Origin: a virus
Length of the DNA stretch: 64,000 nt
Reading direction: 5' to 3' (one strand)
IMG/VR virus record: IMGVR_UViG_3300025168_000044
Coordinates: 1 to 64,000 of that record
The notes beneath the pieces are model-generated. The model worked only from the letters and a program-made list of their open reading frames with translations, had not been told where the DNA came from and ran no database searches. The position numbers and the translations under genes were made by a program. Below are positions 9,571 through 33,400 of the stretch, one piece after another (the stretch's first letter is position 1; each line of letters opens with the position of its first letter).

Positions 9571-11433
9571 TTAAACAATCTCTTCCTCCATAGCACTGAA
9601 GCCCCGTGAACGTGTAGCGTCATAGGCTAAATAATGAGCCCCTGCCATTTGTGCAAAACGTGAAGAAGGCGGAATTTGCTGGCAACCATGAAGCGCTAAG
9701 GCCAGTGCCATTACTGTGTCATCATGAGCCCCTTCCTGCGCTTGCTCCTTGCCATTCGGGTCTACTACAAAACGTAACATCTCCTGCAAAATCACTGGGG
9801 ACTTGACCCTCAGCCATTCCTCCCTGACACACTCCTTCAAAAAGCCTAAAATCTGTGGGCGAGTTCGCTTGGTGGTTAAAAAGCCTAACTTCCTCGTTGG
9901 CCTACTCCCACGCTCATCCAACACCCTTTCTGCATAAATATTGGGGTAGCGGTAGTAATCACTTAGCCTCCTGACTGTAACCATGCCGTGGTTGTTGCGC
10001 TCGACAACCATCCATGCTTGATTGTAAAACCGCCCCAATGCCGTCAAATGCCCTGCCAATTCGTCGGGGTCACAGCGTAGCCGCAAAGTCGCTACCTCTT
10101 CATAGGTCACGGCATCCAACACCACTGCTACCGAATAATCAGCATCCCGCCTACCTGTCAAAATCCCCTCGGCTACATCACAGCCAATCCGATACTCACG
10201 GTCATAGACTGGGGGCGTATGCACTTTTAAAGGCCCCAAAGGCTCTGGCAACAGGTTAAAACGTAGCTCTTGCATTGCACCTAAAGTCTGCTCAATCCCA
10301 AAAGGCTCCCCCTCTCTGGCCTGAGCCTGCCAGCCTGTTAGCACACTGCGCCGAAAAACAGAGCGTGAAGAGCTGAGAAAGCTCTCCTCTGGCGATGACG
10401 GGTAGTCCTGGTGAAATTGGTCCAGCTCCCCTTGACAAACATCACTAATACAGCTGCGCCGCCAGTGTAAATGCTCCAGCGATACGCTAAAAATCTCTTC
10501 AGTATCCCCAGTTGCCATCTTGTACGTCTGACCCAGTAAACTAGCCTCCTCCTCACCCCCATACTTCTCCAGTGTCCCCAAACTCGCTTGAAATGCCTCA
10601 CGATCCCCCTCATTGCGGAATGGCCTTACATAGTCACTGAAACTCCACCACGGAAAGAAATCAGCCTCCCAAGCATTCGCTCCCTCGGCTGCCTGCCAGT
10701 AGCTGTTGTAGAAATGCCCCCCAACCCCATTCGCTGTAGACTCTAAAATCTGCTCGCCATGCCCGACCTTGGTGGTGCGCATCAAGGCTCCACAGTAGTC
10801 CGCTGCCCCATTCCCCCACCGGCTTACCTCACTCAAGTGCAAAAAGTTGATCTGGTCCCCAACTACATCGCTACCGCCTACCGTTGCTAACCGATACCTT
10901 GTGTTGCGGCCTCCACCCTCGACTGTCCCCCACTGTAACTCCCCCTTGTTGCCATAGAGCTTGGATGGCTTGAAGGCCGCCGGTAACTGGCTCTCCATCA
11001 GCCGCACCATGTTGAACAATGTGCGGGTGGTCTCCTCGCTGTTGGCTACCAGTAAGATCCGCTGGTTGCTCCTAATCAAACTGGCTAGAAAGAACCGCGC
11101 TATTACATACGTCGAAAGGCCAGAGCGCCTAGGCTTCAAAACTACCCGCCTTACATAGCCCTGACGGGCTAGCTGATCCTCTACCCTCGCGTGAAGTACC
11201 CGCTGGACAGAGTTTAAACGCAACGGGATCAATTCCCCTGAGCCAAATGCCTCTATGCGGAACAGCCGCTCAAATGCTGCCGAGGGGTGTGACCAGCAAA
11301 AACGTATAAGATCAGCTAGATCCATTTGTGGCCCCGCCGTGCCCCCTCCCCCCTCCAGATTAAGGGATTCCTTACTCTCTGAGTCCCTGAGCTCTGCGAT
11401 GTAGCCGTTTTCTAGGCTGTCGGCTGTGATCAT
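9571..11433 (-). CDS. terL: Terminase large subunit
   Basis: LKPRRSGLST (Walker A), LHLSE (Walker B), ESTANG, IGCDVAEG, ERNNHG, HDDTVMA. Confidence 0.93.
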   Translation of the reverse strand: MITADSLENGYIAELRDSESKESLNLEGGGGTAGPQMDLADLIRFCWSHPSAAFERLFRIEAFGSGELIPLRLNSVQRVLHARVEDQLARQGYVRRVVLKPRRSGLSTYVIARFFLASLIRSNQRILLVANSEETTRTLFNMVRLMESQLPAAFKPSKLYGNKGELQWGTVEGGGRNTRYRLATVGGSDVVGDQINFLHLSEVSRWGNGAADYCGALMRTTKVGHGEQILESTANGVGGHFYNSYWQAAEGANAWEADFFPWWSFSDYVRPFRNEGDREAFQASLGTLEKYGGEEEASLLGQTYKMATGDTEEIFSVSLEHLHWRRSCISDVCQGELDQFHQDYPSSPEESFLSSSRSVFRRSVLTGWQAQAREGEPFGIEQTLGAMQELRFNLLPEPLGPLKVHTPPVYDREYRIGCDVAEGILTGRRDADYSVAVVLDAVTYEEVATLRLRCDPDELAGHLTALGRFYNQAWMVVERNNHGMVTVRRLSDYYRYPNIYAERVLDERGSRPTRKLGFLTTKRTRPQILGFLKECVREEWLRVKSPVILQEMLRFVVDPNGKEQAQEGAHDDTVMALALALHGCQQIPPSSRFAQMAGAHYLAYDATRSRGFSAMEEEIV

Positions 11434-11625
11434 TTCCCAGTCATATGATATAGCATCATTTGCTCGTTGCCTTAACTGCTCGGTTTGCCGGTGCTGAATT
11501 ACCGATTTGCAGGTTTGCCGGTATTATAAGCCGATAGAATCAGCCGAGTCAGCCTTCTCGCGCAGAAGCTGTGGTTGTGTTTAACTCTGCTTTTTCAACT
11601 CCCGTGGACAATGTCGAGATAATTA

Positions 11626-11675
11626 CGCAATATTGCGAAAAATTGCTTGACCTGTTGTTTTTGTTGCTTTACGCT
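11626..11675 (+). promoter_or_regulatory. Sigma70-type early promoter with upstream 12-bp palindrome
   Basis: TTGACC (11647-52), 17-bp spacer, TACGCT (11670-75); CGCAATATTGCG at 11626-11637. Confidence 0.6.
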
Positions 11676-11780
11676 TGACGTCCCACTCCAAGTGGGGCGG
11701 GGGAGATCTTGCCCGCAGCTTAACCCTAGCCTAGCGCCTGACGCGCTGAGCTTTTCAAATAATTGATAAGGATACCACGC

Positions 11781-12254
11781 ATGAAATACGCAATAGCTAT
11801 TTGCCTCGGCGTCGATATTGTTTCTTCAGCTGGCGGCTACATCGCAGCCTGTTGTTTAGCGGAAGATCGACTTGCTGAAGAGTTGATCCCGCTTCTCTAT
11901 AGCGACCTGCCTGAATACAACGGAGAGCAGTCGGACGGCTGCTTATCTTGGGTTCGTTGCACCGAAAAGGTTGCGGCGGAATATGGGCACCACGGCCAGC
12001 GTTTGCAGCCGGTGGCATTTGCAGAGCCGGCAGTATTCAGAGCGCCCACTGTTTTTGGATTAGACGAAAGATACCGATATTACTATGTAGCGGCAGGCAT
12101 TGACGAAGTGACTGTATACAACGGTCTAGTCGATTTCGACCCTGAACTAGCAGCCTGGAAAGAGCGGCACCCTACCGAGAGCGTCCCGCAAGGCTACAAG
12201 GCCGGCAGGGCAAAAAAGCTAAATGTTTGGCGAGCTGAGGAGGTAGTGCAATGA
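11781..12254 (+). CDS. Hypothetical early protein
   Basis: AAGGA RBS before ATG 11781; coupled to the next gene. Confidence 0.6.
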   Translation: MKYAIAICLGVDIVSSAGGYIAACCLAEDRLAEELIPLLYSDLPEYNGEQSDGCLSWVRCTEKVAAEYGHHGQRLQPVAFAEPAVFRAPTVFGLDERYRYYYVAAGIDEVTVYNGLVDFDPELAAWKERHPTESVPQGYKAGRAKKLNVWRAEEVVQ

Positions 12255-12727
12255 AGCCAAGCAACAACCCTCCGAACCGATTGGCTCAGGATGAACAACG
12301 CATCCGCGTGACTGTTGATCTGCTTTGCTCAGGAGGTCTTGATCTTGTGGATCTTGAGCTGATCGCGAGCAGGTTTTTGAGCCAAGAGCTAGAACGCCCC
12401 GTTGATGGGCTCCATATGTCAGCGTTTCAAGGCATCAAGCCAGACAGGAGAGAAGCAATCATTGACGGCTTGCAAGACCTGAAAAAACTAGACCCTGCAG
12501 CGGAGAGCAGCATTGCGGATTGCCTGCCGGTATCACTGCATGACAGCGAGGCCGACTATTGGTTCAGCGCTGAGGCAGAGGATTTACTTGACGATATAAC
12601 GACAGCGATTGAGGAGGCGGCGGACACCGTATTGGATGCGGCAATGAACCCGCACGATGCCGAAATGGAGGAAGCCGTGCTTTCCCTGCATGACCCAGAA
12701 AGCGACCTAATCGACTGCTACAGCTGA
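12251..12727 (+). CDS. Very acidic early protein (DNA-mimic candidate)
   Basis: C-terminal half is Asp/Glu-rich and has no Lys/Arg. Confidence 0.55.
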   Translation: MKPSNNPPNRLAQDEQRIRVTVDLLCSGGLDLVDLELIASRFLSQELERPVDGLHMSAFQGIKPDRREAIIDGLQDLKKLDPAAESSIADCLPVSLHDSEADYWFSAEAEDLLDDITTAIEEAADTVLDAAMNPHDAEMEEAVLSLHDPESDLIDCYS

Positions 12728-12775
12728 AACACTAACCACGGGGGCCGAGAGACTCCCGCACAAAGGATCTACACA

Positions 12776-13324
12776 ATGAGCTTTCAAAAGTTTGTAGAAG
12801 GGCGGCAGGAGCCTCCCGAAGTGCTTGCCTATATATATGAAACGAATGCGGAAGCGGATTGGCAGGTTTTAGACTTGCCAGACGTAGAGGCGGATTTTCC
12901 GCGCCGTTGCTTTCAAGATGCCTTGGCGGCGGCCGAGCATATCGGTGGAGAGTTGATCCACGCCGAAGGGTGCGCAGGCCCTTGGATTGTAGTTGAAGTC
13001 AAGGACTACAACCGAGCCCTCGAAGACGAGGTGCACGGGCAAGACAGCTTTGGCGTGAGGCCACAGCCCCCACGCAAGAGAATTCCAGATTTTACAGCTG
13101 CACACGCTGAAGAGGCTTGCAGGGAGCTAATCGCCGAGGGCGCACGGCTGAACGCCACCAAGTTTGTTGTCGAGTTTGAGGGCCACCAGCTAGCGCCAAA
13201 GCAAGTGATTGCCAAGGCTGTCCAGCTAGCAACCGGCCAGCCGCTATCAATCCGAGAGTTTTCTGGCGGGGAGGAAAGTAACCGGCGTTTGCGCCGCGCT
13301 GGGTTGACAGTGAGCCGATTATGA
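12776..13324 (+). CDS. Protein with C-terminal ScoMcrA-head-like domain
   Basis: KFVVEFEGHQLAPKQVIAKAVQLATGQPL..EFSGGEESNRRLRRAGLTV. Confidence 0.55.
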   Translation: MSFQKFVEGRQEPPEVLAYIYETNAEADWQVLDLPDVEADFPRRCFQDALAAAEHIGGELIHAEGCAGPWIVVEVKDYNRALEDEVHGQDSFGVRPQPPRKRIPDFTAAHAEEACRELIAEGARLNATKFVVEFEGHQLAPKQVIAKAVQLATGQPLSIREFSGGEESNRRLRRAGLTVSRL

Positions 13325-14043
13325 TCGCATACCACGGAACGCCGATCAGCGGCGCCGAGGCAATCGTAAGCCGTGTCTTGCTGTCGAGGTTTGCCTTTGT
13401 TTCATTTGCGCGGCCCGATCAGCTAGAGCTTGTTTCTGAGGTCTGCGCTGGATTCGCCTTGGACAATGGGGCGTTTTCATTTTGGAGCCGAGGCGAGAAA
13501 CCCGACTGGGAGCTTTACCGCTCATTTGTGTTTGAGTGGTACAAGCACCCCGCTTTCCAGTTCGCCTTGATCCCTGACGAAGTCGAAGGGGGCGAGGCAA
13601 TCAATGAGGAGCTTTTGCGTGAATACCCCCTTCCCTCAGGCGTTCCGGTATTTCATCAAGGCGAGAGCTTGGAGCGCTTGGAGCGCTTGGTTACTAGCTA
13701 CGAGCGGGTAGCCTTGGCAAGCGTAGAGCGATACATACCGAGCGACAGCTTTTGGGCGTGGATTGGTGAGATGATGACAATTTGCTGTGATGCTCACGGC
13801 AGACCTCGTTGCAAGCTGCACGGCTTGCGGATGCTGAATCCTGAGATTTTCGAGCGCCTGCCGTTGGCGTCTGCTGACAGCACAAACCTTGCGCGCAATT
13901 GCAACCACCGCCAGCGCTGGTCTGGGCGCTATGTCCCCGTCGGGGCTGAGCTGCGCGGTTTAGTAATGCGTGACCGGATTGAATCATTCCAAAGCCCATG
14001 CCGCTTCGAAAAAGCGACAACCACACAACCAACATTTTTTTAA
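13321..14043 (+). CDS. TGT-fold (queuine tRNA-ribosyltransferase/DpdA-like) transglycosylase
   Basis: YHGTPI, FALDNGAFS, IPD..EG, VPVFH, LHGLRML, PLASADST. Confidence 0.65.
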   Translation: MIAYHGTPISGAEAIVSRVLLSRFAFVSFARPDQLELVSEVCAGFALDNGAFSFWSRGEKPDWELYRSFVFEWYKHPAFQFALIPDEVEGGEAINEELLREYPLPSGVPVFHQGESLERLERLVTSYERVALASVERYIPSDSFWAWIGEMMTICCDAHGRPRCKLHGLRMLNPEIFERLPLASADSTNLARNCNHRQRWSGRYVPVGAELRGLVMRDRIESFQSPCRFEKATTTQPTFF

Positions 14044-14082
14044 ACCGTAGGGGGCAACACGCCCCCGCACAAAGGATGCACA

Positions 14083-14748
14083 ATGGTGAACTTAACAAAA
14101 AGCACAGACCCCCAACCAACGGCCCCAGAGCTTGGCCTTTGTATGAATTTAGACGGCACACAGCTGCAAGGCATATTCCCGCAAAACAAAAGATCGGATT
14201 TTCAGATTTGCGTTCAAAGCCTAAGCCACAAAAACGGCGGGCAGGTGGTTTGCGCGTGGCTGGACGTTGAGGATTTAGAAGTTGAAGACATAGAGTTAGC
14301 AATCGCCAGCTTCATGAAATACCTCGACAAGCGAGAGCGAGAGCGAGACCTAAAAGGCTACTGGTTCCTTGGGCCAGTGGAAGAGTGGGAGATTGCAGAC
14401 TACGATTTACCGTTTAAGTATGATGACTTTGAAGATTTAGTCCGCAAGGTCGAAATCTGCGCAGAAGAAGACGGGGCGTTTTTGCTCAAAGCCGCTCAAG
14501 ATTGCGGGGTCGACTGGGAGCGCGGGCTCAAACACCTAAAAGCCCGCATTATGTGGCGCGTCAAGAATAATCAGCATGGATGCATGAGCGATTCACGGCG
14601 GGATTGGGCTTGGGAACAATTAGGCGAGGCGGGTTGTCCTGAGCGTTTCAGATCGTGGATAGATTTAGACTTTGCTTTCAAGGAACTAATCGACGGCCAC
14701 ACTTATTATTATGACGATGATGACGGGCTAGTTATTTTTGACTGTTAA
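14083..14748 (+). CDS. ardA: ArdA-like antirestriction protein
   Basis: SL..KNGG.VVCAWLD, EEWEIADYD, S..DWAWE.L....PE.FRSWID.D...KEL and terminal GLVIF follow the ArdA consensus. Confidence 0.72.
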   Translation: MVNLTKSTDPQPTAPELGLCMNLDGTQLQGIFPQNKRSDFQICVQSLSHKNGGQVVCAWLDVEDLEVEDIELAIASFMKYLDKRERERDLKGYWFLGPVEEWEIADYDLPFKYDDFEDLVRKVEICAEEDGAFLLKAAQDCGVDWERGLKHLKARIMWRVKNNQHGCMSDSRRDWAWEQLGEAGCPERFRSWIDLDFAFKELIDGHTYYYDDDDGLVIFDC

Positions 14749-14795
14749 CCACAACCACGGGGGCAGGAGGCCCCCAGCACAAAGGATCTATTACA

Positions 14796-15215
14796 ATGAA
14801 AAATCTGATTGAGCAAGCGTTGCATGAATGGTTGAAGGCGGACACGGTGAAGGCTTGCGGCCATTCACAATTAGCGGTGATTAAGTGGGGGCCTTGGACG
14901 GAGGAGCCCGAAACCAAGCAACTGATAGAGCCGCAGTGGTTGGTAAGAATCAACAACCGAGGGCGTTCTTACAAAGTCCCCACAGATTCAGAGCTTGACC
15001 TTACAAATGACATGATCCGCGCGTTTTATATTGCGATCCATCAAGAGATTGCCAAAGAGTGCAAGCGCGTTCCCGCCGATGCAATCCAGATCCAAGCCTA
15101 CACGAACAACCACCCGACGGGGTTCCACATCCTTTTTCAGTACACGGAGAATTACCACGCCGCACGGCACGACCAGCAGCGTGAGCGTTTAAGCCTTCCG
15201 GCAATCGCCGAGTAA
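14796..15215 (+). CDS. Hypothetical early protein
   Basis: Preceded by repeat element/RBS. Confidence 0.7.
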   Translation: MKNLIEQALHEWLKADTVKACGHSQLAVIKWGPWTEEPETKQLIEPQWLVRINNRGRSYKVPTDSELDLTNDMIRAFYIAIHQEIAKECKRVPADAIQIQAYTNNHPTGFHILFQYTENYHAARHDQQRERLSLPAIAE

Positions 15216-15262
15216 CCAACCAACCAGCTCCCCCCTGGGGGGCTACTAACAAGTGAGGCATC

Positions 15263-15487
15263 ATGCACAAATTCACTAACGGCACAAGCTACACGACACA
15301 CAACGACGGAGATTATAAAGTCATCAGCCGCACGGCAAAGCGGATGACGATTAGCGACCAGTTTGGAGCGGTCAAAACCGTTGGCGTACTAATTGACGAG
15401 CGCGACCCCAAGCGAGGCGAATGGGCACGGCCCGAGGGTAAATATTCAATGTGCCCAGTGATTCGGGCAGAGCGGCCAAGCAACTAA
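15263..15487 (+). CDS. Hypothetical early protein
   Basis: Preceded by repeat element; VISRTAK...GKYSMCPVIRA. Confidence 0.7.
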   Translation: MHKFTNGTSYTTHNDGDYKVISRTAKRMTISDQFGAVKTVGVLIDERDPKRGEWARPEGKYSMCPVIRAERPSN

Positions 15488-15583
15488 GGAACCAGCCCAG
15501 AGGGCACAGCTGGCTCAGTTGTGCCCCCGAGGCTGGCGCTTTGGTAGCGTTGCAGCGTTTTGCTACTAACTAAAGGATCCACA

Positions 15584-16027
15584 ATGACCCGTACAGAATT
15601 TGTTACGAACTATTTGGGTTTAGCAGACCCAATGGTGACAGAGTTAACGATTGACCGGCTCAGGCGTCAAGCTGAGATGTTGCAGGAGCTGGAGCCGCAA
15701 AAGCTCCGAATGATTACAGACTCAGGGCACGGCTGGCTCGAAGTGAGCGTTTTGCAAGCGATTAACTTAGGGCTTTGTGCTACAGACTTCAGCGCCTTCA
15801 GCTACACAAACGGCGAATTTATTGGCCGTGAATTTATTTGGTCAATCTGGAGTCAATGCCCTCTAAATAATGGGCGGTTGCCAATCCATTGCTACTACCT
15901 TGAAGAAGACTGTGACGCCGTGATCTACCTGAGACGGCATCAGCTGGTGTATGAGTGTGAGCCAAGAATCACGCACGTTGAGCTAGATGGTGATTGCGAA
16001 ATACGGCGGTTGCCAGCGATCTACTAA
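15584..16027 (+). CDS. Conserved phage hypothetical (DxGHGWL...YLEEDCD family)
   Basis: DSGHGWLEV, FSAFSY, YLEEDCDA; AAAGGA RBS before ATG 15584. Confidence 0.7.
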   Translation: MTRTEFVTNYLGLADPMVTELTIDRLRRQAEMLQELEPQKLRMITDSGHGWLEVSVLQAINLGLCATDFSAFSYTNGEFIGREFIWSIWSQCPLNNGRLPIHCYYLEEDCDAVIYLRRHQLVYECEPRITHVELDGDCEIRRLPAIY

Positions 16028-16073
16028 CCACAACCGGCCCCGCCTTGGGGCTACTGACTGAAAGGAAACACAA

Positions 16074-16643
16074 ATGAAAGCCACCATACTATTCCCTGCA
16101 ACACCCACCACCAACGGAGTGATGAATAAGCTACGAGCCTATGCTCAACTTCTCGCCAGCTGCCCATTTTTCAAGGGCGGCACCAACTTGCCTGAGATCG
16201 CAGGGTACTTCGGGGATGAAGATTACGAGGAGCTGAAGGACGTTTGCTGTCCTACCAACTGGCATTATGTCAGTGAGCGGGGCAACGAGGTGCAGGTTCG
16301 CAAAAAAGGATCCGCTTGGGCGGGTTCTTCAATTGAGCATTTTGGCTGCGCGGCGATGTGGGAACTGCACCTTGACTGCACTCGGGGCTGGTTGCGCTCT
16401 CACCCCTTGGGCTATGCCATCGCCAGGGATTTGGGGCGGATGCCTCAATTGCTGAGAAGCCTGAAATCACAAGAGCCTGAGCGCGGGGTTTGGGAACATC
16501 CCAAGCCAATGCAGGGCCGTAAAATCGCTGTCAAAGGGGGCTGGTGGCATGTCAGCGCAGACCCAAGCGGAAGGGTTGACAGCGCAATACTACGGACCAT
16601 TTTGCGGCGTAATGATCAAAGTGTGATGACGCTTCCGGCTTAA
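16074..16643 (+). CDS. Hypothetical early protein
   Basis: Preceded by repeat element. Confidence 0.7.
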   Translation: MKATILFPATPTTNGVMNKLRAYAQLLASCPFFKGGTNLPEIAGYFGDEDYEELKDVCCPTNWHYVSERGNEVQVRKKGSAWAGSSIEHFGCAAMWELHLDCTRGWLRSHPLGYAIARDLGRMPQLLRSLKSQEPERGVWEHPKPMQGRKIAVKGGWWHVSADPSGRVDSAILRTILRRNDQSVMTLPA

Positions 16644-16678
16644 TTTTTCTGAAGGACTTAATTTTTTCAAGGATTAGG

Positions 16679-16909
16679 ATGGGACTGCTAAAAAAATTTG
16701 GAGTGCTCAAACCAAAATCGTTTAAATACCAAATTAAACGAACGCACACCTACTATATGTCAGGTGAAATCTGGGCATCTAGTGAGGAGGCGGCAAGAGA
16801 AAGGATTGAGGGATTTAAAGATAGTGTCCCACCGGAATTGTTTGACCACACACACAACACTGAAATCGTACACATTAACGTAATCAAGGAGACAGATGGA
16901 TCTATTTGA
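16679..16909 (+). CDS. Hypothetical protein
   Basis: AAGGA upstream; overlaps the next gene. Confidence 0.55.
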   Translation: MGLLKKFGVLKPKSFKYQIKRTHTYYMSGEIWASSEEAARERIEGFKDSVPPELFDHTHNTEIVHINVIKETDGSI

Positions 16910-17246
16910 ATCGTTCCTAGAATTAACTGATAAAGTCCCCCCTGCGCCTGAGCCTGAGCGCTACCTAACCCTAAGCCCTTCAGACTGGCTGGATCGCGTG
17001 GAGCTGGTTGAGAGCACCGAGTTGCAAGTTGAAGGTTGCCCAGTGTCTATCGCATTGACTCCACGGATTGAAGCAGTGCATGAAGGACAGCGCTTCATGC
17101 TCCGAAGCACAGACAACGGGGTTCTACTGATCAATGGCAAAGCTCAGGAAACCCGATCAATGTTGCGCATGAGCCAGCGCGAATGGCTTCGCTTTCGTGA
17201 GCTGGTCGATCAAGCTCAGGCCAGAGGCAATGGCCGTTTACTGTAA
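16896..17246 (+). CDS. Hypothetical protein
   Basis: AAGGAG RBS. Confidence 0.65.
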   Translation: MDLFESFLELTDKVPPAPEPERYLTLSPSDWLDRVELVESTELQVEGCPVSIALTPRIEAVHEGQRFMLRSTDNGVLLINGKAQETRSMLRMSQREWLRFRELVDQAQARGNGRLL

Positions 17247-17290
17247 TAACCACAGCCCCGCCTTGGGGCTACTAACTAAAAGGACACACC

Positions 17291-17851
17291 ATGGATTTAA
17301 TCATCAACAGCACAAAAAAAATGAGCCGCAAGCCCTATCTCTGTCTTTGGCTTAAAGGCTATGAAAGACAATGGGCGCCAAAAGAAAAGGCAACAAGCAC
17401 TACTGTCAGATTCCAGCTGCTTGGGCTTGAAGCTGGTCAGGTAGTCGAGTGGAGAGCGAGTCTTTGGGATGGTCAAGATTTTACGAATCCAGCTGTACGC
17501 TGGGGGCTGGTGACGGATAACGACTTTATTCTGATTAGCCGCAATCTTTCAATTCACGCCCAGGTAGCTCACAGCAAGGGGGATCCGTTTGTACAAGCAA
17601 CTGGCAGTGATTACAGCGGGGATCTATCTGGGGGGTTAACAGCTGATGAAGAAGACCGGCTCCGAAATTCTTTGATTAATTGTGGCGGGGACTTTATTTG
17701 TTTCCGAAAGCGTAGTGGGGAGCTGTATCTGCCGGTGATGGAGGATGATAATGATATGTACTACGGCACTGTACAAGGCAAGGCTTGGACGCTACCAACT
17801 GTCAGGGTCGTGGGCTGTGCCGCTGCTGCCGCTGAAGAAGCTGAAGCCTAA
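17291..17851 (+). CDS. Hypothetical early protein
   Basis: Preceded by repeat element. Confidence 0.7.
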   Translation: MDLIINSTKKMSRKPYLCLWLKGYERQWAPKEKATSTTVRFQLLGLEAGQVVEWRASLWDGQDFTNPAVRWGLVTDNDFILISRNLSIHAQVAHSKGDPFVQATGSDYSGDLSGGLTADEEDRLRNSLINCGGDFICFRKRSGELYLPVMEDDNDMYYGTVQGKAWTLPTVRVVGCAAAAAEEAEA

Positions 17852-17899
17852 TCAACATAACGCCCCGCCTTGGGGCTACTAACCTAAAGGGCAAACATA

Positions 17900-18223
17900 A
17901 TGGGAATGGAACTACTAAATAAATATGAGTTTTGGACGAACTATTCAGAATCGTATTCAGATGAGTATTTGTATCATAGTGCTCATGCTGATGAAGATAA
18001 CGGTATCCCTTATATATATGAGCAGACTCCAGAAGAACTCGTAGAAGCAGCTGCTGGAATGACCACAGAACATAATGACGATTGGTTTGTTGAACTGCTA
18101 TATCGGGTAATTGTGCAAGGCAAGACACTGCAGAATGCCTATGATTCGATAAAAACTGAATCCTCTGATTATGGAGGCCCAGGCGTTGACTTCTTACACC
18201 CAGCTCCAAGGCGGGGCTACTAA
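17900..18223 (+). CDS. Acidic hypothetical early protein
   Basis: Preceded by repeat element; Asp/Glu/Tyr-rich. Confidence 0.7.
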   Translation: MGMELLNKYEFWTNYSESYSDEYLYHSAHADEDNGIPYIYEQTPEELVEAAAGMTTEHNDDWFVELLYRVIVQGKTLQNAYDSIKTESSDYGGPGVDFLHPAPRRGY

Positions 18224-18236
18224 CTAAAGGAGACAT

Positions 18237-18587
18237 ATGCACAATTTTAATTGCCGATACGCAGATTTGGTGATCCACACTAGCTGCCCTGCATTTGTAG
18301 ATAAAAAAGGCCAGATCCCATATTTAAATGAATTAATGTGGGAGGATCCTGACAGCATCACCGTGCCGCAAGCAAAAATGGATAACGAGAATTGCCAAGG
18401 CAGCTACCACTATTTAAATGATAGCCCTGCCGACTTAAAACTGGTTTGTAACGAGCTGGATGAGCGGGGGATCAAATATCATGTCTTTTTTGATTGGCAA
18501 CCAGAGCAAGGGGCAACACCATCAAGCTATGTAATTTGGACACCAGAGATGGGCATGAGTGATTTTAAGGCAACCAATAACTTATAA
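18237..18587 (+). CDS. Hypothetical early protein
   Basis: Preceded by repeat element with AAGGAG. Confidence 0.7.
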   Translation: MHNFNCRYADLVIHTSCPAFVDKKGQIPYLNELMWEDPDSITVPQAKMDNENCQGSYHYLNDSPADLKLVCNELDERGIKYHVFFDWQPEQGATPSSYVIWTPEMGMSDFKATNNL

Positions 18588-18597
18588 AGGATTCACA

Positions 18598-18915
18598 GTG
18601 AAACTATTTTACGGGTTCCACTACCGAGGTGGGAGAAACACAACGACTGGCGATCCACACCCCACCACTGGGCGCATGAGCATTGCGGGAAATCTCAAGG
18701 TGTTTGCAACTGGGGAAGCAAGGGACGAATGGGTTGATGCAGAGATTTTTCATGTTCCCGATTCAGGATTTCGGGAAGCTGTCACCACCAAGCAACAAGC
18801 CAAGGAGTTGTGGGCTGGTCTGAGTATCAGTGAGTTTAACGAGTACATTAGACAAGAAGCAATCTTACTTGAGGATGACGCCGATTTTGATCACCACACT
18901 TGGCTGAGTTACTAG
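18598..18915 (+). CDS. Hypothetical protein
   Basis: AAAGGA RBS before GTG 18598. Confidence 0.6.
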   Translation: MKLFYGFHYRGGRNTTTGDPHPTTGRMSIAGNLKVFATGEARDEWVDAEIFHVPDSGFREAVTTKQQAKELWAGLSISEFNEYIRQEAILLEDDADFDHHTWLSY

Positions 18916-19388: not shown

Positions 19389-19636
19389 TCTTGTGCTGTT
19401 TAATGCCTATTTAAGCGTTTAATGTTTTAGCCAATAAAATCAGCATACTAGCGAGGAGGCAAAAGTGGGGAAATCTATAAGACCTAGATACAAATTTTTT
19501 AGATAAGTCAAGCACTGTTAAGTTTCTAATAAGTTAATAAGTATTTCTCCAATAAAATCAGCATACTAACAAGCGCGCTTTGTTGCGCGTTCACAGCGCG
19601 CACATTGGCGCGCATCAACTACAAAGAGAGAAAACT

Positions 19637-19915: not shown

Positions 19916-20115
19916 TCGGCAAACGCTTCTCAAGGCTGCTAGTGCTGGAGCGTGTTCAAAAAGCTGGCAGCACTCACATTTTCTGGCGATGCCAGTGCGA
20001 GTGTGGCAACCAGCGCATTGTGCGCAACAGTGAGCTGTACGAGGGCACAACAAGGCACTGTGGTTGTCAACCGCGCAAGCAACATTGCTACACAGCAGCA
20101 GAGTATGCGAAATGA
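19912..20115 (+). CDS. Stand-alone Zn-binding domain of the type found N-terminal to phage HNH/AP2 proteins
   Basis: GKRFSRLLVL...WRCQCECG...L..G.T.HCGC. Confidence 0.65.
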   Translation: MIGKRFSRLLVLERVQKAGSTHIFWRCQCECGNQRIVRNSELYEGTTRHCGCQPRKQHCYTAAEYAK

Positions 20116-20414
20116 ACATTTTTGAATCAGTGGATAAGCACTTCGGGGCTGTAGTTGCCAAAGATCCAATTAAAGGCAAACTGCATGTTGGCTACAGCTT
20201 GAAAGAGCTGAGGGCCTTGCCCATTCGCAAAGCTGGATTTTCTGAAGCAGTGGTCATTTGCTTAGAACGCTCCCGCATTTATGACCTGGGCCAGCTCACA
20301 GCGTTGACACAAAAAGAGCTGCTGCAAATCAAAGGGTTAGGGGACGGGAACCTGCTGGCAATTCTTAAGCTGTTGAGGCTACTTAATCTTAGATTAAAGA
20401 CTTATAAAAGATGA
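20112..20414 (+). CDS. RNA polymerase alpha-subunit CTD-like protein
   Basis: PIRKAGFSEAVVICLERSRIYDLGQL...QKELLQIKGLGDGNL..I...L matches the alphaCTD HhH pattern. Confidence 0.75.
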   Translation: MNIFESVDKHFGAVVAKDPIKGKLHVGYSLKELRALPIRKAGFSEAVVICLERSRIYDLGQLTALTQKELLQIKGLGDGNLLAILKLLRLLNLRLKTYKR

Positions 20415-21720: not shown

Positions 21721-22176
21721 TCATTGCCCAAGGTTTTTGACCATAAGTCCGCCGTTATACGACCAATACTTTGTAGCGATAATGCGCCAGACGTGACGAT
21801 CATCTTTAAAGATGGCATCAAGGACGGCTTTTGCAAGATTGTCAGTGTCCTTGGGACTGGTTTTGGCAGGCTTATCGTTCAACTCTTTTTTGCGGCGTTT
21901 GCTCCAGCTCTTCGGCATGGGCAGGTAAAAAATCATTTCTACCTGATCAGACAATTGGAACTTTGCAGCATTGCACTTTAGCCTCAGCTCGTCACAATAA
22001 GCCCGATATCTAATTTCATGAGGAGAAGGTTTCCAGCGTGATCGCTGGGATTGTCGGGGGGAAGTAACTGGATCGCATGCTATGAAAATCAAAAGGTTTG
22101 TATTAACGGCAGAGACCCCGTCTCCCCTCATTTTGCATTGGCGCTGAGCTTCATCAATGGAGATTAGTGAGTCCAT
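21721..22176 (-). CDS. rusA: RusA-family Holliday junction resolvase
   Basis: FYLPMPKSWSK, KDTDNLAKAVLDA, DD..V. Confidence 0.85.
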   Translation of the reverse strand: MDSLISIDEAQRQCKMRGDGVSAVNTNLLIFIACDPVTSPRQSQRSRWKPSPHEIRYRAYCDELRLKCNAAKFQLSDQVEMIFYLPMPKSWSKRRKKELNDKPAKTSPKDTDNLAKAVLDAIFKDDRHVWRIIATKYWSYNGGLMVKNLGQ

Positions 22177-22333
22177 GAGATTTCCTGACTTCACAATTAA
22201 TTAGCACCTCCTCCTTATCTTCCTCACTCATGCCCCACCAGTGCATGATCTCCCACTCACTTCTTTTACAAACAATGCAATAGCCTTTGTGATTCAGCTC
22301 ACACTGTCTTTTTTTACATGGGGATTTGATCAT
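22154..22333 (-). CDS. DUF1289-like Cys-rich protein (59 aa, below the ORF-track cutoff)
   Basis: Hand translation: MIKSPCKKRQCELNHKGYCIVCKRSEWEIMHWWGMSEEDKEEVL... Confidence 0.7.
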   Translation of the reverse strand: MIKSPCKKRQCELNHKGYCIVCKRSEWEIMHWWGMSEEDKEEVLINCEVRKSHGLTNLH

Positions 22334-25174: not shown

Positions 25175-25454
25175 CCGGCTGCCAGTCGTAATCCCAAGTG
25201 GAATCGTTGTAAGGATCGTCTTTGCGCATTAGCTTTTCCTCCATGGTTATGTCAGCTGCTATGAATGTTCTGCAGGTTTTCGTGTGCTGTTCGGAGCTGT
25301 GCTTCCCGCAGTAGGGGCACTTATAAAGCCAGCAGACCCTTCCGAGCTTTGCCTCAGCCGCGCGAATGCTTGCCCAATATGCCCTGCCAATCGCCTTAGT
25401 CTCTGCCTTAAAGGCTTTGAAGCGTTCAATCCCTTTTCCCTCTCCTTCATCCAT
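25161..25454 (-). CDS. Hypothetical protein with CPYC...HxxxC
   Basis: Overlaps the initiator start; Zn-finger-like motif. Confidence 0.5.
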   Translation of the reverse strand: MDEGEGKGIERFKAFKAETKAIGRAYWASIRAAEAKLGRVCWLYKCPYCGKHSSEQHTKTCRTFIAADITMEEKLMRKDDPYNDSTWDYDWQPDERD

Positions 25455-25645
25455 TCAGTGATTTCTCTTTCGATCCAGCGACTCTGCTGCCCAACTAAAT
25501 AGGCTCTTGGGAATCTACTCGTCTTGTCCTTGCTCAGTTTGTAAACATAGTATCTAGTGATCCCCGTAATCTTTTCCACTTCCGACACTTTAATCATCTT
25601 GTCAGTCGGCTGTAGCTCCAAGATGTACTCAAAATCAAGGTTCAT
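25259..25645 (-). CDS. AlpA-family regulator / excisionase candidate
   Basis: IKVSEVEKITGITRYYVY......FPRAY.VG..SRWIEREITEW. Confidence 0.75.
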   Translation of the reverse strand: MNLDFEYILELQPTDKMIKVSEVEKITGITRYYVYKLSKDKTSRFPRAYLVGQQSRWIEREITEWMKEREKGLNASKPLRQRLRRLAGHIGQAFARLRQSSEGSAGFISAPTAGSTAPNSTRKPAEHS

Positions 25646-27660: not shown

Positions 27661-28275
27661 ATGGGTTTTTCTCTTTCAACGAAATGCAGAAGTGGTTTAA
27701 GAAAGGCGTTAAAAGTAGAAGGACATTCGCAAAAAAAGGCAGCTGAGGTAACGGGTTTAAATCCAGAAGATGTAAGTAGGCTGCTAAGTGGTTCTGCAGG
27801 GGTGGGTGCCGAAAGAGGGAAAATTTTGTGCGATTATTACAGTGTTCCACTAGAAATTCGTCTCGAAGACGAAGAAACGACTAATTATACTGAAGTACCT
27901 TTATATGATCGGCCAATTGTCATGAACAACGGGAAAACAAACCTTGTAGAGACTGTTGAACTGCCGGAAGCATGGATGCCAAAAAGCGCAGACTCATCTG
28001 TCGGGTTAGTAAAAATGGTTGGGGATTCAATGGCGCCTACATTTAATGTCGGAGACATTATTGGGGTGCAGTTTGGGAGTGGTTTCATTGCCAATGGCAT
28101 GTATGCATGCCGTGTACATGACACCGTCATGATTGCTAAACTGCAAAGGAAGTTTAATAGCTTCCGTATCATTTTTGATAACCCACAGTACGAGGACCTT
28201 GATTGCAACGATAGCATGAGGGCAGAAGACTTTGAAATTATTGGAAAAGTTAACTACGCCGCTAAATTTTTTTAA
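27661..28275 (+). CDS. CI-like repressor (HTH + S24 peptidase domain)
   Basis: SQKKAAEVTGL....VSRL HTH; GDSMAPTF..GD; IIGKV. Confidence 0.85.
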   Translation: MGFSLSTKCRSGLRKALKVEGHSQKKAAEVTGLNPEDVSRLLSGSAGVGAERGKILCDYYSVPLEIRLEDEETTNYTEVPLYDRPIVMNNGKTNLVETVELPEAWMPKSADSSVGLVKMVGDSMAPTFNVGDIIGVQFGSGFIANGMYACRVHDTVMIAKLQRKFNSFRIIFDNPQYEDLDCNDSMRAEDFEIIGKVNYAAKFF

Positions 28276-28293: not shown

Positions 28294-29502
28294 ATGCCAC
28301 GGAATCAGGTCCCTTACTTTGTGGAGCGAGGGAGTATCTTCGCACGGTTATATGAGTATCAGGACTCTGGGCAAAGAGCCCCCACAGTAAAAATGTGTTC
28401 AACAGAGCAAAGGGATTTTGATCCGTCAGGCAAACGCCGCACTAAAGCACAGGAGGAAAAGTTTTTGCGGGGGTGTTTAATTGAAGCTACTAAAAAGTTC
28501 ATTGAAAGAAAGGGAGGAGAAAAAAAGACTGAATCAACGAAGTACAGATGGCTCCATGTTGTGCAACTTTTTCTGGATTCTAAAGCACTGACGGATCACA
28601 AGGGGGCCTCTACGCAAAAGGGGTATGCTGTTGCTACCCAGCATTTTTATGATTGTGTTGGAGACATTGACATCTCTGAGATAAAGCTTTTGCACGGGCA
28701 GAAATTTGCCGCTCACTTAATTAAAAGGGATGTGGGGCCGTACACCATCAACAGTTACATTACGCAAGTAAAAGCCGTCTTGAATTGGGCAGAGGAAAAT
28801 GAAATTATCTATAAGGCTCCTAAATTTAAAAAGGTTAGAGAGCCTGAGAAAAAACCGTCTTTTTATTCAATGGAGGCCATTCACAAACTACAAAAGTATA
28901 TAGAAGAGCTCATAAATAGTGACCCCAAATGGAAGGCTGATCGTATGCAGCATCTTCGGGCTATGTTTATGATGTGGGGAACGGGATGCAGGGTAGGAGA
29001 AGCTATGTATTTACCACTGAAGCGCATTAACCTTGAAACAGGCCAAATCTGGATTGCTCCAGTTAAAAACGACTTTGATACGGTTATCTGGCGCCCCAAA
29101 AAAGATATAGAAAGATATTATCCAATGGGCGATAGCCTAATTGAATTTTTGCAAAAAGATTCGGCTCTAAGACCGCCTAAAGAAAAATTTTACCTAGACA
29201 GTGGGTATGGGACTCCACGGTATCGGGCGGCAACCACTCTGGCTCATGCTTTTAAAAAGTATCAGATAAAACTTGGGATCGCTGGCCCCACAGGTAGACG
29301 CCCCAAGGCTAATCACGGCTTTAGAGCTACTACTGCGACCTTAATGTTACGAGGTGGGGTTGACTCCTATGTCGCAATGAAAACCATAGGGCACAAAAAG
29401 ATTTCCACAACTGAACATTATATGAGCGAGGACCTTGATTTACGGAAAAAGGCCATCAATGTTGTTGATCAGCAGTACAAGGATAAAAAAACCGACCCTT
29501 AA
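28294..29502 (+). CDS. int: Tyrosine integrase
   Basis: Catalytic R (TGCRVGE), HGFR, IGH, TTEHY. Confidence 0.93.
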   Translation: MPRNQVPYFVERGSIFARLYEYQDSGQRAPTVKMCSTEQRDFDPSGKRRTKAQEEKFLRGCLIEATKKFIERKGGEKKTESTKYRWLHVVQLFLDSKALTDHKGASTQKGYAVATQHFYDCVGDIDISEIKLLHGQKFAAHLIKRDVGPYTINSYITQVKAVLNWAEENEIIYKAPKFKKVREPEKKPSFYSMEAIHKLQKYIEELINSDPKWKADRMQHLRAMFMMWGTGCRVGEAMYLPLKRINLETGQIWIAPVKNDFDTVIWRPKKDIERYYPMGDSLIEFLQKDSALRPPKEKFYLDSGYGTPRYRAATTLAHAFKKYQIKLGIAGPTGRRPKANHGFRATTATLMLRGGVDSYVAMKTIGHKKISTTEHYMSEDLDLRKKAINVVDQQYKDKKTDP

Positions 29503-30486: not shown

Positions 30487-33400
30487 TTAATCAGTAATTG
30501 TGGCTGGGAGAGGCCGAGCAGTTCCCAGCAACTTTTCGTACTGTTTCATAATCGCTTTGGTAAAGTATTCGTTCTTTTCCCTTATTCGCTCAATTTTTTC
30601 TTCATCACTTAAATTTTGATTGCCAGCAATTTTTTGTGATTCTCTTACTTGTCGTGATTTTAATTGACCGAGCTTATAGCTTTGCAGTTCAATGTTTCGG
30701 CGTTGAGCATTTAGTGGATCTACACTGTAAAGGTTGGCCCCTGCAAAGGTGCGCCCCAAAGATTGGCCCAGTGTGCGCTTAGGCTGGCCTTCACTGTCTA
30801 CTAAAGTGCTTTCATCATATAACATTGGGATCATCCCTTCTGCTGACAAAGCATCAATGAGCTGCCTGATCACGCCGCCCGTGGAGGGTATGGGCACATC
30901 ACTATCTGAGGTAATATATTTATGTGCCTCATCAATCATGCCTCGCAAAATTGCAGGCTGAAGCTGGTTAGATAACCAAACCGATCTTTGTACATCCTGG
31001 TCTTCTTCTGGCAAATAATCGTCAATGAACTTCCGTTTAGTAAAAGGATCTACACCTGTTCGGTAGCCTGCTACTAGATTCAACAAAAAGCTTTGAAGAA
31101 TACCTGATTGAGCTGCGGCGCTGTCAACATTACCTCGGCTTAATTCTTCTGCCGCTCTGGTATACATGCCCCAAGGGATGTAGTACGTCTGATCAATGAG
31201 TTGAAAGCGGTCCATGCTGTCTTTAAATGGGAACAAGGCCAGCGATGGGTTCTTTTCTGCCCATTCACCTCTAGCTTTTTTGAGCGCCTCGACTGAATCT
31301 TCTTCATCCTCTTCAAACATTTCCTCTATGGTTTGCTTAAAGCCAAACTGTATTATTTTGCTGAGAGTATTAAAGAGCTTGTACTGCCATGCTAGCAACA
31401 GCAAGGATCGACGGCCTACCCCTGCAGGGTCGCGTTTTAAAGCTCTTGGGAAAGTTTCCAGAACCTTAGCAGTATAGGTTATAAAGGCAGCCCCTAGCGG
31501 AGAGGTTCTTGTGGTGCGAACCCACGGGCGCACCAGCGAGTAATCAAACAAAGCATCCTCTGCCAGCCTGACCGCTTCCTCCTCACTTAGCCCCTTTTCT
31601 TCCATTGCATACATGACCACGCTCATCTTATCCATGAACTCCATGTTCTGGTAGATAAAGCCTCCCTTGTCTACAATGTACTTGTTCCAAAGGTTTGCTA
31701 GATGCAGGTAGTAAATTTCGGCTGCAGAAAAGTCCTTGAATTCTTCAATAGGCAGCCCTGTCATTTCTGACAGCTCTCGCTTTTCGGCTGGAGAAAGTTT
31801 ATTCTTTTGCGTCTTGAGCTTGATTTGAAACTCAGCAACTTCCTGCCGAATGCGTTTTAGCTCCTGATTAGAAAACGTCCCAACACCTAAGCCATACTTT
31901 TCAAAAATCTCCTTATACTGCCGGTCTTTTTGATTGGCATCATTACTGAGCAAACTCTGAACAGCTCGGATATTATAGCTTAAAGCATTTACACCCAATT
32001 TCCTTGTGTTGATAGGGAATGGTGGCATTCCTGTGATCACATACATCCAGAGCTTGTTGGAAACAAAGTTCCTAGCCATCGACGGTGGGTTGAGGGCTAC
32101 ACTGAACAGCTTTTGGTAGCGCTGGTACTTTGCCGCAACACTGTCATCGCCAAAAAGAAACTTTGTCATGAAGTCATCTTTGCCTGGCTCAATTTGCGTG
32201 AAGCCTACGATGTCATCATAAATCTCCTGCTTCACCCACATCCCACGAAGAGCCCCATAGCGTTTGTCCTTTGGCATCTTTGCCCAGCCTTCAAAAGCAG
32301 TGGCACTTTCATCAGTGGGTAACCCCATTCGGCCCAATGCTTCTCGCTTGTAGTCATCCATGCGCTTGGTCAGGGTGTAAAGAGCCTGCTGGTACTTTGC
32401 GCTTTTCGTTGGAGCAATCTGGTCTCGGATCCTTTGGGCTTCTTCACTCAGGTAGCTGGCTGTCACATCGTAGCCTCGCATCCCTATAATTGGATCCAAG
32501 ACTTTCAGCATTTCAACCAAGGCAGCTGTTTCTAAATTGTTCGATAGCCATGATGCAGCAGCTCGTTGCTTTTCATTAGCCTGAATGGGTTGTTGTTGAT
32601 CTAATGCCAGCACCACAATTGGTTCCAACCCCTTAGCCCTTCGCTTTAAGCGCCGTTGGTTTCTGAAAGGCCGGTCAGGGTCTGTGCGCTCCAGCTCTGT
32701 TTGGAGGCGAGTAAACTGGCTGCGGATATAGCTCCATAGCTTTTGCTCTGCCAAGGCGGCTTCCACCTGAGCAGGTTGGCCGGTATCAGTTTCCAACATC
32801 GACTGCTGCCCAGCAGAAATTGCTCTTTGGTCATCAACATTCTGAGAAAGTTTAGCGCTGGTCCCAGAAATCCAATCGCCGAAGATATCAAGGACACTGA
32901 GCAAGTTCGATGGGATAATCTGAGGTTCCAACTCATGCAAACGGAGGTTTTGTGATAGCTGAATAGCCTCCTCCTGCGTCATTTGATTTGCATCCAGCAT
33001 CTCATTGATGATCTGTTGCATCTCATCATGGAGACTAAAGCCCGTAAATTGATCCTGCAAAGTCCAGGCAGGGTTTTCTGCCAAAGATTGAAAGTATTCG
33101 AGCAAGGCAATGTCACGGCCCACGGTTCCAACACTTTGAGCTGCTAAGAATGCGGGATCTTTCACAATGCCCAAAATCTCTTGGACTAATAAATCTGTTG
33201 GGTTGTCCCCAGTGAGCTTCCTGCGATTGGTGTAGTTCAACGGTGAGGGCTTGCGGCCAGTGGATAGAACCGCATTGACTTCATCGGGTAGGAGGTACTT
33301 CAAATAAACTTGAGGCAAATACTTGAAGCGATACTTCTCATAGGACTCTTGGGGAATCTGCCCAAGGTCTACCAGCTGCTGCCCTAAGTCATCAATCTCA

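Follow-up and report, generated by a model that had tools for sequence, protein, structure and literature searches.

A family of intergenic hairpin and start-block modules in one operon of an uncultured temperate phage

In phages T7 and T3, the RNase III sites between early genes form irregular stems at least about 20 bp long, and intercistronic stabiliser hairpins are exemplified by REP elements. T4-type phages carry promoter-early stem-loops (PeSLs; Arbiol et al. 2010, PMC2839356; Comeau et al. 2014, PMC4122927), i.e. elements of about 100 bp, every one of which comprises a strong σ70 promoter and a transcription-terminating stem-loop; recombination between PeSLs gives rise to mini-circles. 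Start-associated and extended start-associated sequences (SAS and ESAS) were described in Cluster K mycobacteriophages (Pope et al. 2011, PMC3203893). Approximately one in two SAS copies is immediately preceded by an inverted repeat, the consensus of which varies by subcluster (PMC3203893). The ESAS inverted repeats are 17 bp long and imperfect; their departures from symmetry do not support RNA pairing, and a DNA-binding protein has been proposed instead (PMC3203893).

The window analyzed here is a 64,000-nt stretch of a 91-kb record (IMGVR_UViG_3300025168_000044) of an uncultured, temperate phage. Nine intergenic modules, all on the + strand, are located at 12.7–18.3 kb within an operon that carries two predicted anti-restriction genes, and none occurs elsewhere in the record. 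All nine elements listed in an initial annotation of this DNA are present where it placed them. The modules are repeated units of 45–55 bases between small genes of the operon, composed, in order, of a stop codon, a C/A-rich lead, a stable GC hairpin of 5–8 bp (long and irregular in the fifth module, E5), a conserved Shine-Dalgarno (SD)/start block and an ATG. Their spacing is narrow, with 6–11 nt from the stop codon to the hairpin and 16–23 nt from the 3′ end of the hairpin to the ATG. They recur every 0.4–1.3 kb in direct orientation and belong to two types grouped by position, type A at 12.7–14.8 kb and type B at 15.2–18.2 kb. The stem arms are swapped between the types (GGGGGC..GCCCCC in type A, GCCCC..GGGGC in type B), as had been noticed initially.

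The recurrence of these elements exceeds that in shuffled sequences. The type B 12-mer GGGGCTACTAAC is present in four exact copies and one with a single mismatch, all intergenic and on the + strand, against 0.17 expected, and five copies were reached in none of 100 shuffles. Three exact copies of the type A 11-mer GCACAAAGGAT were found (0.06 expected; three copies in 0/100 shuffles). A repeat search recovered families of 35–38 nt at 12734/14043/14753 and 16037/17255/17862. In addition, both strands of the 90,956-bp record were scanned, without reference to sequence, for a GC hairpin followed within 16 nt by an SD and then by a start codon opening an ORF of 40 codons or more. The scan returned eight of the nine modules and two spurious matches within ORFs, and nothing more in the whole record. 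The ninth module (15485–15586) combines a long hairpin with a type B block. The start block is confined to this operon.

The operon, all features of which are on the + strand, opens with a candidate host-type promoter (TTGACC, 17 nt, TACGCT; 11647–11675), identified on reading the sequence and retained in a close relative, contig L085 (80% at the nucleotide level). Its −10 hexamer matches the consensus at only three of six positions, and it was missed by the consensus scan. It is followed by a hairpin similar to those of the modules (11679–11699; 9-bp stem, one U·G pair), which lies at or close to the 5′ end predicted for the transcript; in L085 its stem is kept and its loop is flipped. A second leader hairpin (11732–11748) has a GC stem of 5–6 bp, in which a C-to-T change in L085 creates a G·U pair and preserves the pairing. 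Genes g1 (11781–12254) and g2 (12251–12727) overlap start-on-stop and match no known family; homologues are present in contigs L085, L087, L088 and L095.

Module E1 (12725–12778), a degenerate type A copy with hairpin 12739–12758, contains one G·U pair that is A-U in L085, and the hairpin is also kept in L088. It precedes g3 (12776–13324; 182 aa), with a C-terminus resembling the ScoMcrA head domain in structure comparison, and g4 (13321–14043), a homologue of DpdA/TGT-like 7-deazaguanine transglycosylases. E2 (14041–14085; type A, hairpin 14050–14066), which in L085 has an identical stem and an approximately reverse-complemented loop, leads to g5 (14083–14748), encoding a probable divergent member of the ArdA antirestriction family. 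E3 (14746–14798; type A, hairpin 14759–14775) shows a compensatory G-C to A-U change in its L088 orthologue and is followed by g6 (14796–15215; 139 aa), 92% identical in L088.

The type B series begins with the variant E4 (15213–15265; 8-bp hairpin 15226–15244, one U·G pair), located ahead of g7 (15263–15487; 74 aa), an ORF without a family match. E5 consists of the long irregular hairpin (15492–15536), a second hairpin and a start block that is a type B/type A hybrid (15562–15586); its fold has a minimum free energy (MFE) of −43.4 kcal/mol (z −3.0). It precedes g8 (15584–16027; 147 aa), which has a homologue in contig L086. Behind E6 (16025–16076; type B, hairpin 16036–16052) lies a three-gene unit (16074–17246) of g9 (16074–16643), g10 (16679–16909) and g11 (16896–17246), in which g10 is placed within an AT-rich insert lacking a module (GC 0.387 at 16644–16909 versus 0.55 and 0.54 in the flanks). 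The type B modules E7 (17244–17293; hairpin 17254–17270) and E8 (17849–17902; hairpin 17862–17876) flank g12 (17291–17851; 186 aa), for which only two homologues were found in a set of 5.8 billion proteins. The next gene, g13 (17900–18223; 107 aa), terminates at a TAA inside the block of E9 (18202–18239; hairpin 18202–18218, one U·G pair). An element had been placed at 18197, and one does exist there, but it is corrected to a type B block with a flipped type B hairpin, i.e. one with a reverse-complemented loop, sitting in the end of the upstream ORF. Finally, g14 (18237–18587) and g15 (18598–18915) form the segment 18237–18915, and their joint (18585–18600; repeat family D4) is a start block without a hairpin. 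The start-on-stop overlaps of genes inside units confirm the initial division into units of one to three unrelated genes.

In MFE folds the SD and the ATG are unpaired in eight of the nine modules. Folding z-scores of single modules are modest (−0.9 to −3.0), and the case depends on recurrence in register and not on how stable a single hairpin is. No + strand module scored in a σ70 promoter consensus scan or passed a scan for hairpins followed by a T-run, and the reported lack of a U-tract and of −10/−35 boxes holds. As the modules show neither a promoter nor a terminator signature, transcription of the genes behind them must arrive by read-through from an upstream start. Identity as intrinsic terminators was rejected, as the GC hairpins have no U-tract directly 3′. 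A search of Rfam produced no match to a module and one chance-level match (E 0.8) inside an ORF.

The modules share with PeSLs a GGGG..CCCC-type stem-loop present in many copies, a plastic region of small orphan genes, whole-gene indels at the elements between related phages (here the short contigs L088 and L086) and repeat-to-repeat recombination as the proposed mechanism. They differ in being 45–55 nt long and devoid of −35/−10 sequences, for which they appear on reading to have no room, and hence in needing read-through from upstream; moreover, the present phage is temperate and not of the T4 type. The PeSL analogy drawn initially therefore fits the architecture and the evolutionary behaviour but not the promoter by which PeSLs are defined. 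The modules are a promoter-less cousin of T4-type gene joints, real but not new in kind. With SAS/ESAS they have in common a conserved asymmetric block that holds an SD core a few nucleotides ahead of the start codon; it precedes non-structural genes exclusively, always in the same orientation and mostly at ATG starts. However, the sequences and the host group are different, the stems are 5–8 bp long, and G·U pairs together with compensatory changes speak for folding of the sense strand. As the block bears no relation to the 13-nt consensus of SAS (PMC3203893), this is a likeness and not membership.

Similarly to RNase III sites and REP elements, one structured element is present between consecutive cistrons of a long early transcript, where it would protect the end of each segment. 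In contrast to RNase III sites, eight of the nine modules have stems of only 5–8 bp; the E5 hairpin (15492–15536) alone is of comparable size, at about 20 bp. Hairpins of 5–6 bp are too short for such sites, a point against the reading preferred below. The layout also recalls integron attC sites, hairpin-forming repeats that bound promoter-less cassettes served by one upstream promoter, but no core repeats or long imperfect fold were seen, no integron integrase or attI is adjacent, and folding of the sense strand is favoured.

The array could be compared with four short contigs of relatives, none of which extends to E4–E9. Between the window and L085, one of 36 core stem positions is changed, against 0.40 of four-fold sites (109/274), whereas 13 of 18 loop positions differ and two loops are flipped. 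This comparison indicates strong purifying selection on the stems relative to four-fold sites, but not on the loops. Orthologous hairpins carry pairing-preserving changes. When G·U pairs were allowed, the best + strand stem became longer in about 16 hairpins out of 20 tested from modules or the leader, often by 3–7 pairs; allowing A·C, equivalent to G·U on the other strand, mostly added terminal pairs in the same set. The wobble pairs thus favour sense-strand folding. Both start blocks of L085 are identical to each other and show the same differences from all three type A blocks of the window, a pattern of homogenisation within each genome, i.e. concerted evolution, and an indirect sign of exchange.

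Relatives at 74–80% TerL identity keep the architecture with different sequences and gene sets. Each has its own module sequence family, common to its copies, and unrelated stem sequences are placed at the same position. These data agree with the initial proposal that structure is conserved over sequence. Contig L088 lacks exactly the segment corresponding to 12776–14083 (g3 and g4, the unit between E1 and E2); its E1-type hairpin is kept and is followed by the ArdA-like gene. In L086 the g3 homologue is directly joined to the g8 homologue. Gene order among the relatives is therefore not fixed and gene content is variable, as anticipated, with differences that begin and end at modules; the fixed order named initially as a refuting outcome was thus not observed. 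Among the relatives, entire genes have been acquired or lost at these sites, and the modules may serve as short homologies for gene turnover. However, a whole-gene indel survives selection only if its ends lie in intergenic DNA, and finding such ends at modules is therefore no proof of module-mediated recombination. Near-identical hairpin-SD-ATG modules were also found ahead of unrelated genes in unrelated Pseudomonas-type phages.

On balance, we lean towards reading the modules as RNA-level operon punctuation, in which a stabilising or insulating hairpin is combined with a standard translation start, and which doubles as recombination homology. They would be cis-acting intercistronic elements of one long operon, acting mainly in mRNA transcribed by the host RNA polymerase from the single candidate promoter upstream. 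Each independently translated unit would be provided with an unstructured C/A-rich lead, a short GC hairpin and an unpaired start block made up of an A-rich spacer, an AAGGA-type SD, a CACA-rich spacer and the ATG. At its distance from the ATG, taken to be just beyond the ribosome footprint, the hairpin may cap the message segment against exonucleases and 5′-end-dependent decay after cleavage, and may shield the start block from the upstream coding sequence. Expression would then be predictable for any gene placed after a module. As near-identical direct repeats of 35–55 nt, the modules would also lend themselves to homologous recombination and gene conversion. Such events would homogenise the copies, and whole units could be lost, gained or swapped between related phages. 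Recombination would take place within the modules themselves.

The conserved blocks could alternatively be operators for a phage or host factor, either an RNA-binding repressor or endonuclease or a DNA-binding repressor acting at many sites. T4 RegA and RegB act on early mRNAs and switch a gene set off together, while the stoperators of Cluster A mycobacteriophages are numerous intergenic sites for a DNA repressor. Block conservation extends past the SD into the spacer and the start context, the phage is temperate and has a CI-like repressor, and the block sequence common to all copies in a genome is what site-factor co-evolution predicts; within-genome homogenisation could instead mean co-evolution with a trans-acting factor, a point against our preferred reading. 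SAS/ESAS elements were interpreted as factor-binding sites (PMC3203893). We nevertheless consider operators unlikely, since two block types with little in common beyond AAAGGA coexist in one genome, the loops vary freely and flip, and hence a sequence-specific site does not lie in the hairpin, and family searches revealed no candidate RNA-binding protein in the operon.

It is rather improbable that the repeats are mostly historical, i.e. junctions copied together with genes by duplication or illegitimate recombination, or selfish repeats that merely carry an SD. Local copying would produce the grouping of types by position, and several genes of the operon lack the hairpin, but neglected remnants would hardly show selection on stems and not on loops, pairing kept through compensatory and wobble changes, or unrelated stems at the same position in relatives. 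We give still less credence to the hairpins being attenuators or weak terminators that grade operon expression, possibly with antitermination read-through. PeSL stem-loops do act in this way, those of the GGGG..CCCC type having lowered lacZ expression behind them to roughly the same extent as a strong terminator (PMC2839356), and the present hairpins closely follow stop codons; yet no T-run follows any + strand hairpin, internal promoters for restart are lacking, no antiterminator was identified, and nine serial terminators would silence the distal genes. Least probable of all is an integron-like cassette system with hairpins folding in single-stranded DNA to be cut and joined by a recombinase: despite a hairpin at every junction, flips indicating that the palindromes form in DNA at some frequency, and a tyrosine integrase at 28294–29502, that enzyme, the only integrase, lies about 10 kb away next to the CI-like repressor and has its matches among ordinary phage integrase PHROGs, the short stems lack attC-type folds and, on reading, core repeats, the wobble pairs favour the strand as transcribed, and module sequences differ between close relatives, making a conserved recombinase site unlikely.

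The suggestion that ORFs of the array without assigned function are anti-defence candidates gained no support, as the remaining ORFs had no match in Pfam, PHROGs, NCBIfam or PADLOC. The three functional likenesses noticed initially fared better. The assignment of g4 as a DpdA/TGT-like homologue is strongly supported by its match to phrog_887 (E 7.6e-57; residues 1–227, over most of the length), and 46 relatives are present in IMG/VR. Family-level support was obtained for g5 as ArdA: its match to PF07275 (E 6.4e-5, 24 bits) is below the Pfam cut-off of 27, but a profile search of the PDB gave ArdA 2w82 as the sole match (E 2.7e-4), and four homologues with 50–77% identity carry PF07275. Its structure model is poor (pLDDT 39). 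The AF2 model of g3 (pLDDT 79) had 5zmm_B as the best Foldseek match, and VIA-align superimposed residues 104–182 on the ScoMcrA head domain (chain residues 4–93; Z 8.5, rmsd 1.9 Å over 65 residues; next match Z 3.5), which supports a ScoMcrA-head-like fold for the predicted C-terminal domain.

The window covers the initial 64 kb of an IMG/VR virus record of 90,956 bp. Positions 1-278 of this record are repeated at 56803-57080, and five mismatches separate the two copies, starting at base 128. GC content is 0.474 for 1-56802 versus 0.348 for 56803-90956, as if a circular phage of ~56.8 kb had been fused to another phage that is AT-rich. The circular phage has its structural genes, encoding the major head protein, portal/adaptor and large terminase (TerL; 9571-11433), on the − strand, and a row of ~20 small genes runs along the + strand from a divergent gap at 11.4-11.8 kb up to 21.5 kb. 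The phage is predicted to be temperate: besides a RusA-like resolvase (21721-22194, − strand) it encodes an integrase (28294-29502), a CI-like repressor (27661-28275) and, on the − strand, an excisionase-like HTH protein (25259-25645). Cultured phages are all distant (TerL identity ~30% at best), and no prophage was found in GTDB species genomes with the TerL or ArdA-like profile. The sole Pfam match of a 4521-aa ORF (30487-44052) is a ddrB-like ParB domain at residues 2078-2203; this ORF is reminiscent of the polyvalent proteins that phages and conjugative elements encode. A 116-aa protein (20064-20414) matches the RNA polymerase alpha C-terminal domain (PF03118, 25.2 bits, cut-off 23.8) and might act for the phage as a decoy or modulate transcription in the host.

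The + strand operon (ORFs g1-g15, 11781-18915) carries a real and well delimited family of nine intergenic modules (E1-E9, 12.7-18.3 kb), each composed of a stop codon, a GC hairpin, an SD/start block and ATG. All nine were found where the initial annotation had placed them. E1-E3 are of type A, whose 11-mer occurs three times in the record against 0.06 expected, and the type B 12-mer (E4, E6-E9) occurs five times at one mismatch or fewer against 0.17 expected, counts that no shuffle equalled. A repeat search independently recovered the families as repeats of 35-38 nt. Types A and B could not be aligned in one register by MAFFT and module sequence families are lineage-specific, so a structure-pattern scan was chosen. 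It covered both strands of the whole record irrespective of sequence and asked for a GC hairpin with an SD no more than 16 nt away, then a start codon opening an ORF of 40 codons or more. Its output consisted of eight of the nine elements and two spurious matches within ORFs; the remaining element, E5, combines a long irregular hairpin with a type B block. Spacing is narrow: the hairpin begins 6-11 nt after the stop codon and ends 16-23 nt ahead of the ATG. Both the SD and the ATG stay unpaired in 8/9 minimum-energy folds, and the A-rich SD/CACA/ATG start block is used in this operon only. As claimed earlier, −10/−35 boxes and U-tracts are absent: a scan for such signals found no module resembling a promoter or a hairpin-plus-T-run terminator. 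An Rfam search of the modules gave no match. Where a gene has no module, its start overlaps the stop of the neighbouring gene, and units therefore comprise one to three genes. Just one gap of the array lacks a hairpin module; it is an AT-rich insert (16644-16909, GC 0.387 versus 0.55 in the flanks) that carries g10 (76 aa) and looks like a recent foreign insertion.

Three of the cargo genes could be related to known families or folds. The predicted TGT-like gene is g4 (13321-14043), a DpdA/TGT-like protein (phrog_887, E 7.6e-57). The ArdA-like assignment of g5 (14083-14748) held in part: ArdA is its only PDB sequence match and its homologues carry PF07275, but its own Pfam score falls just under the cut-off and its AF2 model (pLDDT 39) is unusable; g5 is best described as a putative divergent ArdA. 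Structural comparison of its predicted model bore out the McrA-head-like assignment of g3 (12776-13324), whose C-terminal domain folds like the ScoMcrA head domain (Z 8.5, rmsd 1.9 Å over 65 residues; next match Z 3.5), a domain of unknown function (PMC6224610). The precomputed annotation of g3 is PF26345, of which no mention was found in the literature. In g3 this domain is fused to an N-terminal domain of 100 residues and the gene overlaps the DpdA start, while in relatives the domain stands alone, in proteins 107-121 aa long that carry a hydrophobic tail. The remaining operon ORFs have no match in Pfam, PHROGs, NCBIfam or PADLOC and are candidate anti-defence genes solely through guilt by association.

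TerL-anchored scans yielded one close relative (L085) and four contigs with 74-80% TerL identity (L086, L087, L088 and L095). L085 (TerL 93%) is colinear with the window across 11442-14525 at 80% nucleotide identity. Comparative data on the modules cover E1-E3; for L085 three orthologous hairpins were compared, namely the leader hairpin ahead of g1, E1 and E2. Selection on these hairpins falls on the stems: only 1/36 core stem positions is changed, from G.U to A-U, as against 13/18 loop positions; in the four genes that both sequences have in common, four-fold degenerate sites differ at 0.40. One orthologous stem among the relatives has a compensatory G-C to A-U change. In two of the three hairpins the L085 loop is near the reverse complement of that in the window, which points to palindromes flipping at the DNA level and to loop sequences that nothing reads. 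Within the window, E9 is a flipped type B hairpin with an exactly reverse-complemented loop, and its block contains the TAA ending the upstream ORF. An operator for a trans-acting factor is an unlikely reading of the modules.

A strand bias was observed in 20 module and leader hairpins of the window and its relatives. When G.U pairs were allowed, the best + strand stem was longer in ~16/20 hairpins, often by 3-7 pairs; allowing A.C pairs, equivalent to G.U on the other strand, added mostly terminal pairs from the C/A-rich flanks. The fold is thus selected on the sense strand, which points to action as RNA, with folding of the + strand as single-stranded DNA an admissible alternative.

The start blocks are homogenised within genomes. 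The two blocks of L085 are identical to each other, and the same changes separate both from all three type A blocks of the window, a pattern indicating concerted evolution. Historical or selfish repeats are a less likely explanation than an operator.

A candidate promoter (TTGACC, 17 nt, TACGCT; 11647-11675) lies directly ahead of the leader hairpin, and both are conserved in L085. As the modules contain no promoters, transcription of the downstream genes must depend on read-through, and efficient termination at the hairpins is excluded. Attenuators are slightly less likely again than historical or selfish repeats. We favour, with a little better than even confidence, the reading that the modules are RNA-level punctuation whose repeats double as short homologies. 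The hairpin of each unit would cap a message segment and stabilise it, and would insulate the standard unpaired start region by shielding it from upstream sequence. Gene conversion would use the repeats as short stretches of homology, and recombination within modules could mediate the loss, gain or exchange of units.

Gene content at the modules varies among the relatives. L088 retains g1, g2, the ArdA-like gene (71% aa identity) and g6 (92%), and has an additional 69-aa gene. It lacks window positions 12776-14083, i.e. the g3-DpdA unit between E1 and E2; an E1-type hairpin is kept, and behind it come a start block particular to L088 and the ArdA-like gene. L086 has different genes at the head of the operon, and in it a short g3 homologue is joined to a g8 homologue via its own module of ~100 nt. 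The layout (stop, C/A-rich lead, GC hairpin, start block) is common to all relatives, with individual stem and block sequences. The gene-cassette interpretation of the initial annotation thereby receives partial support: gene content does vary at modules, but breakpoints there are expected under any mechanism, because a whole-gene indel can survive only if its ends lie between genes. It is improbable, marginally more so than attenuation, that the modules are recognised sites of active exchange, for example by a phage recombination function acting on hairpins in single-stranded DNA, with the operon an integron-like anti-defence collector and its dozen unassigned ORFs a library of new counter-defence proteins. 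A dedicated site-specific cassette system is the least probable of these readings. Lambda boxB/nut sites were rejected on account of the variable, flipped loops and nine copies, N4-type hairpin promoters since a virion RNA polymerase was not found (the 4521-aa ORF has no recognised domain but a ParB-like one), and CRISPR because spacing and coding content are unsuitable. The most conserved array gene is g6 (14796-15215, 139 aa), compared with 33-71% identity for its neighbours in L088; it has no family match.

Exact IMG/VR scans with 16-mers of the type B, type A and L088-type start blocks gave only single matches per contig, at chance level, and protein-anchored scans with g9 and g6 found nothing. 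With DpdA, the only close match was L085; the remaining loci (~45% identity) belong to unrelated high-GC Pseudomonas-type phages with the same module design. One such contig, L048 (7000-11100), shares with Pseudomonas phage phiAH14a (KU708004) only seven intergenic stretches of 31-63 nt (96-100% identity), between which the genes are unrelated. These stretches are hairpin-SD-ATG modules, and many contigs with DpdA have them in front of unrelated genes. One module of 29 nt is present in 17 copies spread over 16 contigs, and the proteins that start behind it have at least eight unrelated N-termini. Direct copies of one module enclose a DpdA-containing unit of two genes in L048, while phiAH14a carries that module once. 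Such flanking was seen at just one of 43 unrelated DpdA loci, and DpdA as a generally repeat-flanked cassette was rejected.

The proposed analogy with T4-type PeSLs was upheld for span, GGGG..CCCC stem-loop, orphan-gene surroundings and indel behaviour, but the defining feature of a PeSL is that each copy has a promoter (PMC2839356), and the modules have none. SAS/ESAS elements likewise combine a conserved start-associated block with an upstream inverted repeat; RNA pairing is not thought to occur there (PMC3203893), whereas pairing changes in the window modules point to a sense-strand fold. The modules do not have the features of attC sites, intrinsic terminators or, with the possible exception of E5, T7-type RNase III sites. 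They are a promoter-less variant of an already known kind of phage gene joint. That close relatives and unrelated Pseudomonas-type phages use the same design with other sequences suggests that accessory operons of phages follow a general but under-described rule, not a T4-type peculiarity. If this reading holds, the operon shows in compact, natural form how gene joints can be standardised: a promoter-less hairpin and translation-start module lets a phage express, add or drop small accessory genes, anti-restriction genes among them, without regulatory rewiring. The ~12 unassigned ORFs beside the DpdA and ArdA homologues would be candidates for counter-defence screens, and the modules short, portable insulator/start parts for possible use in synthetic operons.

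Downstream of the module array, a 248-nt AT-rich gap contains a 30-nt direct repeat (19426-19455 and 19544-19573; 87% identical, 118 nt apart), followed by GC palindromes. This gap may be a separate regulatory region.
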